From positions 32,001-96,000 of the IMG/VR virus record IMGVR_UViG_3300023202_000142: a DNA stretch of 64,000 bases; one strand, 5' to 3'. The stretch's first letter is position 1. Each line of letters begins with the position of its first letter. Shown here piece by piece: positions 9,881 through 30,244 of the stretch. The translations under genes were made by a program, and so were the position numbers. The stretch is from a virus. The notes beneath the pieces are model-generated. The model was given only the letters and a program-made list of their open reading frames with translations, was not told the DNA's origin and searched no databases.

Positions 9881-10264
9881 ATGGGCGAGTTCACCGTTAA
9901 GAAGTTCGCTGAGGCCCTTCTGGGCAAAGAGGAAGGCCAGAAGGTCATCCAAGAGGCCCGTGACAACCATCAGCGCCTCCTTCACTGTGCCGTACCCCAC
10001 GACTTCGAGCTGGTAGACACCCGTCCATCGAAGGCCAGGTGCAAGAAATGCGGTGGGATCATCAGCGGTTCCGCGATGACCTGGTACAACCGGGGCCTAC
10101 GACACGCCGGGATCCAGAAGAATCCATACCACTGCGAGGACTGCGGTAAGCTCATCGATGCCGACAACCCCGAGGAAGCCGCCTGGAGCGGGCCTGACGG
10201 TGCTACCGTAGTATGTCTGGAGTGCGAACCGGACTGGCGAAAACCGTCCGACGATCCCCCTTGA
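9881..10264 (+). CDS. Cys-rich hypothetical protein
   Basis: CKKC, CEDC, CLEC. Confidence 0.65.
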   Translation: MGEFTVKKFAEALLGKEEGQKVIQEARDNHQRLLHCAVPHDFELVDTRPSKARCKKCGGIISGSAMTWYNRGLRHAGIQKNPYHCEDCGKLIDADNPEEAAWSGPDGATVVCLECEPDWRKPSDDPP

Positions 10265-26622: not shown

Positions 26623-27078
26623 ATGACAGAAGAAACCGTCAATCTCGCTGACATTGTCCAGTTCGCCTCGCAGCACTGGGTAGAACTGGGCACCGGGGCC
26701 GCAGCGGTGACCGCTACAATCTTCCTGGTCGAACTGGGTAAGGGCTGGTTGAAGCTGTGGGTCGCGGATCGTGGCTACTCCGAGCAGTTCGAGGAGAACG
26801 CCGTCCGAACCCTGGTCTTTGCGCTGTCGGTGCCAGTCGCCTGGCTCCTCGAATTCGGCAAGACCTGGGAGTCGTTCTTCGGTAGACCCATGGGCACCGG
26901 CGCCGAGCTGTTCGTTGGCGGAGCCATCACAGCGATCATTAGCATCGTGGTTTACCTGTTCATCCACCGCATTGAACCGATCGAGGTAGCCAGACTGAAG
27001 CTCTACAAGTGGCTGAAGGTCAGCCCCGGCGAAATCGAGAAGGCCCGAAACAACCGACGCGACCAAAAAGGTTCTTGA
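26623..27078 (+). CDS. membrane protein with about 3 TM segments, possible holin
   Basis: hydrophobic segments and basic C-terminus. Confidence 0.5.
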   Translation: MTEETVNLADIVQFASQHWVELGTGAAAVTATIFLVELGKGWLKLWVADRGYSEQFEENAVRTLVFALSVPVAWLLEFGKTWESFFGRPMGTGAELFVGGAITAIISIVVYLFIHRIEPIEVARLKLYKWLKVSPGEIEKARNNRRDQKGS

Positions 27079-27104
27079 CCGCATCGCGACCCCGTCGCTA
27101 CAGT
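27075..27104 (+). promoter_or_regulatory. promoter of tRNA array 1: TTGACC-N18-TACAGT
   Basis: hexamers directly after the upstream stop codon. Confidence 0.7.
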
Positions 27105-27116
27105 CGTCGTCACGGG

Positions 27117-27224
27117 ATGCGACCGGCCACCTTGGAACGAAAACATGATGCAATCATTGCCCAGTCAGATTTGCTCCTCGCTGCTTCCGAGCAGCCACTG
27201 GAGGCGTCTGCGCTGAGCGACTGA
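27117..27224 (+). CDS. putative leader peptide 1, 35 aa (MRPATLERKHDAIIAQSDLLLAASEQPLEASALSD)
   Basis: ATG about 6 nt after predicted +1; Leu/Ser/Gln/Pro-rich distal half; stop about 21 nt before terminator. Confidence 0.6.
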   Translation: MRPATLERKHDAIIAQSDLLLAASEQPLEASALSD

Positions 27225-27276
27225 ATACATCGTTCAAGCCGAAGAAGCCTCCAGTCACTGACTGGGGGCTTTTTTC
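27197..27276 (+). terminator. attenuator 1: terminator GCCTCCAGT-cactg-ACTGGGGGC plus U-tract; antiterminator ACTGGAGGC at 27197-27205
   Basis: 27197-27205 is a perfect 9-nt complement of terminator 5' arm 27247-27255. Confidence 0.75.
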
Positions 27277-27281
27277 GTTTG

Positions 27282-27303
27282 GGTCTTTGACAACTGAAGA
27301 TGA
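27282..27303 (+). promoter_or_regulatory. boxA-like antitermination element GGTCTTTGACAACTGAAGATGA
   Basis: resembles rrn spacer boxA (TCTTTGAAAACT); near-identical copy at 29184-29205. Confidence 0.6.
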
Positions 27304-27308
27304 TGTAA

Positions 27309-27382
27309 GCCCGGGTAGGCTAACTGGCAACGCCGCGGTCCTAAGAAGGCCGTGAGTGTGGGTTCGACTCCCACCCCGGGTA
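27309..27382 (+). tRNA. tRNA-Leu(AAG), short variable loop
   Basis: cloverleaf; CGGTC-ctAAGaa-GGCCG; A73. Confidence 0.8.
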
Positions 27383-27384
27383 CT

Positions 27385-27456
27385 GCTCCCGTACCCCAAC
27401 GGCAGAGGAGCGGCCTTAAAAGCCGTCGAGTCCGGGTTCGATCCCCGGCGGGAGCA
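27385..27456 (+). tRNA. tRNA-Leu(TAA), short variable loop
   Basis: GCGGC-ctTAAaa-GCCGT; TTCGA T-loop. Confidence 0.85.
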
Positions 27457-27458
27457 TG

Positions 27459-27531
27459 GCGCCCATAGGCCAACAGGAAGAGCCGCGTGGTTCAAACCCC
27501 GTGGGTCCAGGTTCGATCCCTGGTGGGCGCA
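27459..27531 (+). tRNA. tRNA-Leu(CAA), bulged anticodon stem, short variable loop
   Basis: acceptor GCGCCCA/TGGGCGC; loop ttCAAac. Confidence 0.7.
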
Positions 27532-27535
27532 TGAT

Positions 27536-27621
27536 GGAGGGTTGGCAGAGCGGTAATGCATCGGTCTTGAAAACCGACGAGTCCCTGACGGGGCGCGAGG
27601 GTTCGATCCCCTCACCCTCCT
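27536..27621 (+). tRNA. tRNA-Ser(TGA)
   Basis: TCGGT-ctTGAaa-ACCGA; long variable arm. Confidence 0.92.
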
Positions 27622-27625
27622 CTGA

Positions 27626-27697
27626 CTGGGTGTGGGCCAGTGGTTGGCCACTTGCTTTGGGAGCAAGGTTACGGGGGTTCGAATCCCTCCACCCAGA
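27626..27697 (+). tRNA. tRNA-Pro(TGG)
   Basis: CTTGC-ttTGGga-GCAAG. Confidence 0.9.
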
Positions 27698-27770
27698 TGA
27701 CCTGTAGCTCAATTGGCAGAGCACTGCACTTTGACTGCAGTGGTTCGAGGTTCGAATCCTCGCAGGTCAA
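27698..27770 (+). tRNA. tRNA-Gln(TTG)
   Basis: CTGCA-ctTTGac-TGCAG; U1-A72. Confidence 0.92.
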
Positions 27771-27773
27771 TGC

Positions 27774-27844
27774 GGCGACGTGTGCGAGTGGTTAGCGCTC
27801 GGATTGCAAACCCGAGGACGCGGGTTCGAGTCCCGCCGTCGCCT
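27774..27844 (+). tRNA. tRNA-Cys(GCA)
   Basis: loop ttGCAaa; U73. Confidence 0.9.
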
Positions 27845-27845
27845 T

Positions 27846-27930
27846 GGAGCAGTGGCAGAGTGGCAATGCAGCGGGTTGCTAACCCGTAGGTCGTTTCGAC
27901 GGCCCGGGGGTTCGATCCCCTCCTGCTCCG
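27846..27930 (+). tRNA. tRNA-Ser(GCT)
   Basis: loop ttGCTaa; long variable arm; G73. Confidence 0.92.
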
Positions 27931-28000
27931 TATCTCACTGAAATCGAGCTGGAATCAGCTCGGAGCTGGCTGCTAGGGTCGGGTAACCCTGGAGGCTCAG

Positions 28001-28569: not shown

Positions 28570-28980
28570 ATGAGAGACATTCTGAACCGCTTACTGAGTA
28601 GACTGCCCCACCAGTGGGCTCGTGATGCCTCGACCGGCCAACACGCCCTCCTGGAGGCTGTGAGCTTCGAATTGCAGCGCATCTATGATCGAATCGGCGG
28701 TCGGCCCGATCAAATCGTGTTCGAACGCGTCGATCTGATGAACCCCTCACCCGACGATGTCCTGGTGTTGACCATGAAGGTCCCGACATCATTCGGGATC
28801 ACGAACTGGATCGACCAGGCGCAACGGATGAGTGATGACCTCAAGGATGCCCTGGGGGTTCGTGAAATCATCGTACTGCCAGACATCGTACACATCGAAA
28901 ACCTGGGTAATCTCGACGCCAACACCGCAAAAGAGCTTGGGAAGCTCAGGAATGTCATCGCGGCACTGAAGGGTGCTTGA
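28570..28980 (+). CDS. hypothetical protein
   Basis: SD AGGAG. Confidence 0.65.
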   Translation: MRDILNRLLSRLPHQWARDASTGQHALLEAVSFELQRIYDRIGGRPDQIVFERVDLMNPSPDDVLVLTMKVPTSFGITNWIDQAQRMSDDLKDALGVREIIVLPDIVHIENLGNLDANTAKELGKLRNVIAALKGA

Positions 28981-29005
28981 CGACCGAATCCAGGTTCAGT
29001 AGGGT
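28977..29005 (+). promoter_or_regulatory. promoter of tRNA array 2: TTGACG-N17-TAGGGT
   Basis: canonical spacing; overlaps upstream stop as in array 1. Confidence 0.75.
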
Positions 29006-29018
29006 TCGTTTTGAAGCA

Positions 29019-29120
29019 ATGCTCACTGCCCGAGAAGGACAGATGCTTTCAACACGGATGGAAACAGGTACGGATAATCGCTGGACCGGGACGCCCCGGG
29101 CCGGAGGCGATGTCGTGTAA
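29019..29120 (+). CDS. putative leader peptide 2, 33 aa (MLTAREGQMLSTRMETGTDNRWTGTPRAGGDVV), not in ORF track
   Basis: ATG about 7 nt after predicted +1; Thr/Met/Glu/Asp/Asn/Trp-rich centre; stop 23 nt before terminator. Confidence 0.6.
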   Translation: MLTAREGQMLSTRMETGTDNRWTGTPRAGGDVV

Positions 29121-29175
29121 CTGTTGTTCATCGACATGAGTCTAGGCCCGGAGGAAACCCCTCCGGGCCTTTTCT
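29096..29175 (+). terminator. attenuator 2: terminator AGGCCCGGAGG-aaacc-CCTCCGGGCCT plus U-tract; antiterminator CCGGGCC at 29096-29102
   Basis: 29096-29102 is complementary to 29145-29151. Confidence 0.7.
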
Positions 29176-29183
29176 CGTTCTGG

Positions 29184-29205
29184 GGTCTTTGAAAATTGAA
29201 GATGA
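29184..29205 (+). promoter_or_regulatory. boxA-like element GGTCTTTGAAAATTGAAGATGA
   Basis: 20/22 identical to 27282-27303. Confidence 0.6.
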
Positions 29206-29209
29206 AAAG

Positions 29210-29281
29210 TGGTCGGTAGCTCAGCGGTAGAGCGTCGGGTTGTTAACCCGAGGGTCGTGGGTTCGAGCCCCACCCGGCCAG
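29210..29281 (+). tRNA. tRNA-Asn(GTT)
   Basis: TCGGG-ttGTTaa-CCCGA; G73. Confidence 0.93.
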
Positions 29282-29285
29282 TTCA

Positions 29286-29358
29286 GCCCCCTTGGCCCAG
29301 TGGCTAGGGCAACCCGTTGTCTGCGGGAAGATCGTCGGTTCGACTCCGACAGGGGGCG
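29286..29358 (+). tRNA. tRNA-Asp(GTC)
   Basis: loop ttGTCtg; G73. Confidence 0.88.
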
Positions 29359-29376
29359 CTGGGGGCAACCCCATGA

Positions 29377-29450
29377 AGCGGGATAGAGCAGTCTGGTAGC
29401 TCGTCGGCCTCATAAGCCGAAGGCCGGGGGTTCAAATCCCCCTCCCGCTA
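29377..29450 (+). tRNA. tRNA-Met(CAT), initiator-like
   Basis: fMet-type D arm and TTCAAAT loop; A1-U72; anticodon stem TCGGC/GCCGA. Confidence 0.85.
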
Positions 29451-29451
29451 C

Positions 29452-29515
29452 TGAGTGCGCACATCGACCAAGGCGGTCCTAGATCACGGGTACGCGGGTT
29501 GGTGAAGGCGGCTCA
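29452..29515 (+). ncRNA. unassigned hairpin RNA of about 64 nt inside the tRNA array
   Basis: TGAGT/GCTCA and CATCGACC/GGTTGGTG stems; not a cloverleaf. Confidence 0.4.
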
Positions 29516-29517
29516 AT

Positions 29518-29591
29518 GCCAGTGTAGCTCAATCAGGCAGAGCAGCTCCCTTGTAAGGAGAAGGCTGGGGGTTCGATTCCCTTCACTGGCT
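29518..29591 (+). tRNA. tRNA-Thr(TGT)
   Basis: loop ctTGTaa. Confidence 0.9.
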
Positions 29592-29595
29592 TAGC

Positions 29596-29668
29596 GTCGC
29601 CGTCATCTAGTGGCCCAGGATGCCGGGTTTTCAGTCCGGTCACGGGGGTTCGAGTCCCCCCGGCGATA
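29596..29668 (+). tRNA. tRNA-Glu(TTC)
   Basis: CCGGG-ttTTCag-TCCGG. Confidence 0.88.
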
Positions 29669-29672
29669 CTGT

Positions 29673-29746
29673 AGGGAGCGCGCGCTGGGTACGCGGTCTG
29701 GCCTCCAAAGCCGGACGACAGCTCGGATCGTCACCGAGGCTCTCTG
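29673..29746 (+). tRNA. tRNA-Trp(CCA) with atypical T-loop ATCGTCA
   Basis: loop ctCCAaa; CTCGG/CCGAG T stem; G73. Confidence 0.75.
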
Positions 29747-29751
29747 TGTGC

Positions 29752-29843
29752 AGGCGTGGCCCGCCAGAGCTGGAGAGCTGGGCCGGGCTGTAAACCCGGT
29801 GCACCCAAATAAGACTGAGTGGGTTCGACTCCCACCTCCCCTA
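29752..29843 (+). tRNA. tRNA-Tyr(GTA), atypical (two acceptor mismatches); possibly pseudo-tRNA
   Basis: perfect CCGGG-ctGTAaa-CCCGG and T arm; degenerate acceptor and D arm. Confidence 0.55.
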
Positions 29844-30074: not shown

Positions 30075-30148
30075 GGGCCGGTAGCTCAGTTTGGCAGAGC
30101 GGCGGATTCTTAATCCGCAGGTCGAGGGTTCGATCCCCTCCCGGCTCA
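30075..30148 (+). tRNA. tRNA-Lys(CTT)
   Basis: GCGGA-ttCTTaa-TCCGC. Confidence 0.93.
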
Positions 30149-30152
30149 CTTC

Positions 30153-30228
30153 GCGCCCGTAGCTCAACTAGGTTCAGAGCATTCGACTTTTAATCGAAGG
30201 GTTCTCGGTTCGATTCCGAGCGGGCGTG
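30153..30228 (+). tRNA. tRNA-Lys(TTT)
   Basis: TTCGA-ctTTTaa-TCGAA. Confidence 0.93.
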
Positions 30229-30244
30229 CTGTACGATCCCTTCC

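Follow-up and report, generated by a model that had tools for sequence, protein, structure and literature searches.

Why phages carry tRNA genes has been debated for decades, with compensation for codon usage set against the replacement of tRNAs that the host destroys (PMC10264068). Phage tRNAs can offset tRNA-cleaving defences, as with the tRNA-Tyr of T5 and SP15 against retron-Eco7 and with the tRNAs of mycobacteriophages (PMC11555353, PMC10264068). The locus studied here raises the question of what decides whether such genes are transcribed: within a 64,000-nucleotide stretch of phage DNA (positions 32,001 to 96,000 of IMG/VR record IMGVR_UViG_3300023202_000142; hereafter the window, whose numbering we use), a tRNA block lies behind a short open reading frame (ORF) and a terminator, an arrangement that an earlier note on this DNA read as a tRNA-depletion-sensing attenuator.

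The Phage and Its tRNA Genes

The record comprises 185,324 bases at 59% GC and belongs to an uncultured T4-like phage, which encodes a T4-type Gp23 capsid protein and a tail sheath; no Terminase_6N was found in the genome. Close relatives surfaced neither among cultured phages (blastn, tRNA matches only) nor in IMG/VR when sought via the neighbouring 151-aa protein or the exact 22-nt boxA, and the DnaB and ThyX relatives of the phage are distant. One candidate relative (L001) was rejected as the same DNA, and a host link via a single genome match was rejected as a chance match to coding-like sequence with no tRNA close by. Among the sequencing runs listed, none that holds this DNA was an RNA run, and no strain variants in the leader were seen in the contigs compared.

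With default settings, 16 tRNA genes are called in the genome, all within two blocks. Array 1 (27309..27931, + strand) encodes three Leu, two Ser, Pro, Gln, and Cys tRNAs, and the core of array 2 (29210..29747, +) encodes Asn(GTT), Asp(GTC), Met(CAT), Thr(TGT), Glu(TTC), and Trp(CCA) tRNAs, the last with an atypical T loop. The earlier note had placed a Tyr tRNA seventh in array 2; its first six members stand, but the tRNA-Tyr(GTA) (29753..29841, +) is atypical, with a mismatched acceptor stem, is not called by ARAGORN, and is possibly decayed. After a 71-codon ORF come tRNA-Lys(CTT) and tRNA-Lys(TTT) (30075..30229, +), probably on the same transcript as array 2; no promoter or terminator was found between it and the Lys genes. 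The tRNA-Met (29377-29451), previously described as initiator-like, does have an initiator-type body, yet its 1:72 position is paired (A-U) and one anticodon-stem G-C pair (29408/29416) has the opposite orientation to that in tRNA contigs from other organisms in the same sample, features with which it may act in elongation or be nuclease-resistant.

Two further features of the arrays were observed. Three tandem short (~74-nt) Leu tRNAs (27309-27531) carry the anticodons AAG, TAA, and CAA—the first unusual in bacteria—and find their best matches in the three Leu tRNAs of large mycobacteriophages. Array 2 contains structured spacers at 29452-29517 (-28.5 kcal/mol) and 29358-29378 (-9 kcal/mol) that are not called as tRNAs and are possibly tRNA remnants or processing signals.

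Promoter, Reading Frame, Terminator, and boxA of Leader 2

Leader 2, as we call the region ahead of array 2, begins with a predicted sigma70-type promoter (28977..29005, +; TTGACG at 28977-28982, a 17-nt spacer, TAGGGT at 29000-29005), present as the earlier note had it. This promoter matches the consensus at 8/12 positions and is unlisted by the promoter scanner; its class (TTGAC-N17/18-TAnnnT) is enriched in the genome (18 vs. 4.5 in shuffles), and its layout recurs in L156, a relative's locus treated below. Its -35 element overlaps the stop of the gene at 28570-28980. In both tRNA leaders of this phage the -35 TTGA (27075-27078; 28977-28980) overlaps the TGA stop of the upstream gene, and the first ATG lies in the frame of the -35 TTG, exactly 42 nt beyond it, so that a ribosome finishing the upstream gene could, by translational coupling, also enter the leader. 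Elsewhere, a sigma70-type promoter class with a repeated GTGCAC in the spacer occurs at 10261 (+), 39958 (-), 43929 (-), and ~9 further genome sites; the motif, probably an operator, is absent from both tRNA-leader promoters.

The leader ORF (29019..29120, +; 33 codons, ATG 29019 to TAA 29120) exists as described, but it had been thought missing from the ORF listing, where it in fact sits within a 47-codon TTG-started frame (28977-29120). In-frame ATGs occur at 29019, 29043, and 29058, and TTG 28977 is also in frame; there is no good Shine-Dalgarno sequence, and the start site is uncertain. The terminator lies where it had been placed before, and the boxA-like element follows it: an intrinsic terminator (hairpin 3:4; 29144..29178, +) with an 11-bp stem (29144-29170) and a U-rich tail, and then, 5' of array 2, a boxA of the rRNA-operon type (29184..29205, +). 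The spacings held as well, with 15 nt from CCGGGCC to the stop codon and 23 nt from the stop to the terminator. Only ~30 nt separate the terminator tail from the first tRNA, and boxA takes most of them. The boxA-like 22-mer has one other close copy in the 185-kb genome, ahead of array 1, and the same motif is present in bacterial rRNA operons at five other loci (L085, L089, L098, L112, L138).

Contrary to the earlier statement that the two leaders of this phage lack sequence similarity, they are faintly alike, with a global alignment score of 78 (shuffle mean, 48), which 0.4% of shuffles reach and to which shared promoter and terminator features contribute. The heptamer GGAGGCG was seen in segment 2 of leader 1 (27200-27206), of leader 2 (29103-29109), and of the L156 leader; in leader 2 an ATG comes after it and opens a 9-codon ORF (29110-29139), three of whose codons specify Cys.

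Predicted Folds of Leader 2

The earlier structural model had to be corrected in two respects. Rather than a 7-bp antiterminator, we predict an extended hairpin 2:3 (29094..29154, +; ~20 bp, about -34 kcal/mol) within which the stop codon lies and which ties up the 5' arm of the terminator, and a competing anti-antiterminator hairpin 1:2 (29057..29132, +; -36.1 kcal/mol) had been missed altogether. The predicted 1:2, 2:3, and 3:4 structures are mutually exclusive. Free leader 2 RNA is predicted to fold with the long hairpin 1:2 and the terminator together (z -4.7). To mimic a ribosome, the RNA was also folded without its 5' part; from 29094 on it then forms 2:3 with the terminator 5' arm captured, a fold that none of 200 shuffles equals in energy and that is lost once the covered part passes ~29100, as expected with a ribosome at the stop. 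In these models, 9 terminator-arm bases are paired in the stalled state and 0 with the ribosome at the stop. In sequence and predicted fold, leader 2 has every structural feature of a leader-peptide transcription attenuator that was checked.

Codon Content of the Two Leaders

If leader 2 senses decoding, the codons that matter should be those at which a waiting ribosome opens hairpin 1:2, i.e., the 12 codons of its 5' arm, beginning with the ATG at its base and reaching up to the antiterminator (29058..29093, +). These specify Met, Glu, Thr, Gly, Thr, Asp, Asn, Arg, Trp, Thr, Gly, and Thr: nine of twelve are array-2 amino acids and none is an array-1 amino acid, with Asn, Asp, Met, Thr, Glu, and Trp all sampled. 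The last two or three of these codons lie within one ribosome footprint of the antiterminator base, and the match to array 2 ends beyond 29093. The earlier count for codons 12-25 (10/14 array-2 and 0/14 array-1 amino acids) is reproduced.

How unusual this is depends on which tRNAs are counted. All six tRNAs are matched in only 9 of 43,711 12-codon windows of real genes and with a frequency of 4.5e-4 in dinucleotide shuffles (best of three frames), figures that depend on omitting Tyr and Lys; counting these, the shuffle value becomes 2.3e-3, and 6/9 tRNAs (Tyr and both Lys genes included) are matched by 3.8% of fixed windows. No Tyr or Lys codon occurs in leader 2, and the Gly and Arg codons of the sensor window have no tRNA here. 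The codon enrichment for which the earlier note had wanted a chance test passes it in part: the best window gives p 0.005-0.05 after correction for window choice, but the whole ORF gives p 0.03-0.14. In the rule-based cross-match described below, leader 2 attains a whole-ORF -log10 p of 1.1 and is not the best cell of its own row. Given its whole-ORF values and the dependence on omitting Tyr and Lys, leader 2 alone is not decisive, and its codon match by itself is moderate and suggestive.

The partner attenuator of array 1 adds to this. Leader 1 (27075..27303, +) has a promoter, 1:2, 2:3, and 3:4 hairpins, and a boxA, and the same three states as leader 2 are predicted (1:2, -34.7; 2:3, -31; terminator). 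Its sensor is probably a 23-codon ORF (27145..27216, +) rather than the 35-codon ORF (27117-27224) that it overlaps in a different frame. Specifically, 14 of 15 codons at positions 3-17 of the short ORF specify Leu, Ser, Pro, Gln, or Cys and all 8 array-1 tRNAs are matched, which none of 43,252 real windows achieves (corrected p about 1e-4), while the 35-codon ORF matches weakly (corrected p 0.03-0.07). Codon match therefore favours the short ORF, whereas position favours the long one, the first ATGs of both leaders then lying 42 nt from the -35. The reciprocal correspondence between leaders and arrays that the earlier note emphasized is upheld with either choice (Fisher p 1.2e-6 with the short ORF, 0.005 with the long), but the leader 1 ORF it used probably gives way to 27145-27216, which fits better by its codons.

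Similar Units in Other Genomes

The earlier note had suggested looking for promoter-uORF-terminator-boxA units ahead of other phage tRNA arrays, and such units exist. Among external loci gathered by pattern scans (U-tract plus boxA), a 15-50-codon ORF ending 13-35 nt 5' of the terminator is, by a single rule applied throughout, present in 17/18 distinct terminator-boxA units followed by tRNAs but in 2/17 without tRNAs (p 6e-7), and such ORFs precede 7-11% of random positions. The 18 tRNA-bearing units were picked by boxA pattern, some are interrelated, and some of their arrays are cut by contig ends.

Across units the codon-to-array match is strong, and like the architecture it recurs in unrelated phages with different arrays. 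When eight external leaders were crossed with their arrays, the same ORF rule being applied to every cell, only 3 of 40,320 assignments scored as well as the true pairing. Left out of this comparison were L033 (no ORF, and a promoter-like site after boxA), L032/L044 and L135 (no terminator), L069, L104, L108, L124, and L150 (one or two tRNAs seen), L002, L068, L076, L126, L129, and L152 (near-duplicates or homologs), and L063 and L078, whose broad arrays are preceded by leaders with all 20 amino acids (p 0.018 and 0.003). By way of example, the L027 leader is rich in Arg, Met, Asp, and Trp ahead of an Arg/Met/Asp/Trp/Phe array, the L153 leader in Leu, Ser, Cys, and Tyr ahead of Cys/Leu/Tyr/Ser, and the L148 leader in Lys, Phe, and Trp ahead of Phe/Lys/Trp; L079 and L076 have two arrays each, with two different matching leaders.

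Homologous leaders in other units differ by whole codons and keep their frame through 3-nt indels, which points to translation. In 19 units the stop-to-terminator distance is 15-33 nt, and an antiterminator fold is predicted in all 19, its energy beating shuffles at p < 0.05 in 13; the number of paired terminator-arm bases, a weak statistic, does not differ significantly from shuffles in 18/19. Units share ORF position and codon match but no conserved hairpin sequence. Short blastn searches, which are insensitive, surfaced no cultured phage with such a unit among the annotated matches.

One further unit, in L156, was reached without the boxA pattern, through the surroundings of a ThyX relative that ranks among the closest (60% identity). 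Six tRNA genes (Asn, a His-anticodon gene, Pro, Gln, Lys, Thr) follow a leader with TTGACG-N17-TAGCAT, an ATG 9 nt on, and a 22-codon ORF whose codons 5-14 (Asn, Gln, His, Gln, Lys, His, Pro, Thr, Asn, Pro) are ten consecutive array codons matching all six tRNAs (whole-ORF p 0.013). Hairpins 1:2 (-41) and 2:3 (-33) are predicted, and stop and terminator are 23 nt apart, as they are in leader 2. The unit has no boxA, which makes boxA an accessory part, and its ATG closely follows the predicted transcription start, a position suggesting that translation of these leaders can do without a Shine-Dalgarno sequence. Past the tRNA-Thr, a further tRNA-like fold (L156:12297-12382) is called by neither ARAGORN nor Rfam.

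Proposed Mechanism and Alternatives

Taken together, the fold energies, ribosome-position models, 12-codon window, reciprocity with leader 1, unit census, cross-match, stop-to-terminator distances, frame-keeping indels, all-20-amino-acid leaders of the two broad arrays, and L156 make it very likely that leader 2 is a ribosome-stalling transcription attenuator gating tRNA array 2. From the sequence and its predicted folds we infer that the leader ORF is translated, that read-through depends on stalling, and what boxA does, as follows. Host RNA polymerase would transcribe leader 2 with a ribosome following. As long as the host Met, Glu, Thr, Asp, Asn, and Trp tRNAs work, this ribosome would reach the stop at 29118 and cover the 5' strand of 2:3, and the terminator would form and keep the array off; with no ribosome, hairpin 1:2 and the terminator would form, and the array would again be off. 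Were any one codon slow, the ribosome would wait within 29058-29093, breaking 1:2, and 2:3 would capture the terminator 5' arm and permit read-through, upon which boxA could load NusB/S10-type antitermination for the untranslated tRNA block. The phage tRNAs so produced would relieve the pause, giving negative feedback.

The sensor window samples many kinds of codon, mostly once each and not in runs of one kind, so the switch would operate as an OR gate that requires a long pause, which fits severe loss of one tRNA better than mild starvation. We therefore lean slightly towards severe loss of one tRNA, by an anticodon nuclease or bulk degradation in infection, as the trigger; as the switch reads decoding speed, cleaved and uncharged tRNA would be indistinguishable to the switch alone. 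We regard it as about an even bet that many unrelated phages keep tRNA-targeting immunity under surveillance in this way, each tRNA block being gated by a leader that samples just its own tRNAs and being made once a host anticodon nuclease or degradation has depleted any of them.

The alternative that survives best accepts the attenuator but makes it a general translation-stress switch, responding to whatever slows ribosomes (antibiotics, a shortage of ribosomes, the timing of host shut-off), with the codon match secondary. Upstream ORFs such as E. coli toiL do sense many kinds of stall (PMC12121999), and two external leaders with all 20 amino acids, like the non-array codons in the leader 2 window, are in keeping with such a role. 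Yet leaders correspond to the arrays behind them and to no others, and different matching leaders occur within one genome (here and in L076/L079), which would be needless for a general sensor; we regard this reading as improbable.

Leader 2 might instead be a small hairpin RNA (~165 nt) ending in a terminator of its own, with leaky read-through supplying the tRNAs and the ORF and its codon match being by-products of hairpin composition. The stability of the whole RNA as 1:2 plus terminator, the want of a strong ribosome-binding site, and the moderate enrichment of leader 2 taken alone would all suit this, but neither leader belongs to an Rfam family, homologs preserve the frame through their indels, every unit offers the alternative antiterminator fold, and what is conserved between units is ORF position and codon match, not the hairpins. 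Moreover, boxA in the established rrn mechanism does not bypass a terminator lying upstream of it, and here it lies 3' of the terminator and so cannot bypass it in that way. On these grounds a small RNA seems very improbable. It is scarcely credible that the ORF is an ordinary small gene closing an operon with its own terminator, the tRNAs coming from a different promoter, a phage-specific one: the -35 TTG does overlap the upstream stop like the coupled starts common in the genome, but the short, boxA-filled gap between terminator tail and first tRNA, the frequency of such ORFs in tRNA units as against random positions, and the antiterminator and array-matched codons it leaves unexplained all speak against it.

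Relation to Known Systems

The trpL, hisL, and multivalent thrL and ilvGMEDA leaders share the attenuator layout described for pheL-pheA. There, a short ORF with control codons precedes 1:2, 2:3, and 3:4 hairpins and a terminator, and stalling frees segment 2 (PMC3082878). Attenuation of tRNA array 2 would have the short ORF, control codons, three hairpins, and intrinsic terminator in common with these amino-acid operons, and differ in having tRNA genes as its output, in being phage-borne, in the boxA past the terminator, and in sampling six or more amino acids mostly once each rather than runs of one to three kinds. Leader 2 consequently falls outside a strict trp/his/phe-type definition (biosynthetic or synthetase genes, tandem codons of one to three amino acids).

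In E. coli, the pheST attenuator (pheM leader) controls a synthetase by ribosome stalling and senses one amino acid; it too is stalling attenuation of the translation machinery, but is host-encoded and has a synthetase as its output. T-box riboswitches bind one uncharged tRNA directly, without a ribosome, tRNA status setting terminator vs. antiterminator. Leader 2 would make the same choice, but a T-box would not respond to tRNA loss, and neither leader gave a T-box match in Rfam up to E 10. The trn operon of Anabaena is a tRNA array that is off until induced under translational stress, with TrcR as repressor (PMC10272220); the array is stress-induced as is proposed here, but TrcR acts at initiation, and the system is plasmid-borne and not codon-specific. 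Leader 2 is distinct from toiL as well. Phage tRNAs that offset defences probably share the purpose of array 2, replacing host tRNAs lost on infection, but rely on a strong promoter or resistant anticodon loops, and attenuation goes unmentioned in their reports (PMC11555353, PMC10264068). The boxA motif is that of rRNA operons, here placed past an attenuator and before phage tRNAs, where it would presumably bind NusB/S10.

No report of attenuation on tRNA genes was found in the literature searched, mostly beyond subscription journals. What would be new is attenuation controlling tRNA genes with many codons sampled; its workings would be those of an amino-acid-operon attenuator. Attenuation would thereby extend to a new output (tRNA genes) and a new logic (one codon per tRNA, an OR gate). 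tRNA genes switched on only when their own codons are read slowly would be direct genomic evidence for on-demand replacement, and the question of why phages carry them becomes testable with a 200-nt reporter. The leader would also serve, as it stands, as a genetic sensor in the search for tRNA-cleaving defence systems and, if the surveillance reading is true, its sequence would show which tRNA losses a phage monitors.

Two minor observations concern the external loci. Roughly 780 nt upstream of boxA in L148 and L152, by the attenuated array, a tRNA is called with a TTA (stop-reading) anticodon, a possible suppressor. In L158:1-3077, reached via a ThyX relative, RelA/SpoT, a release factor, and a tRNA-Ser occur together.
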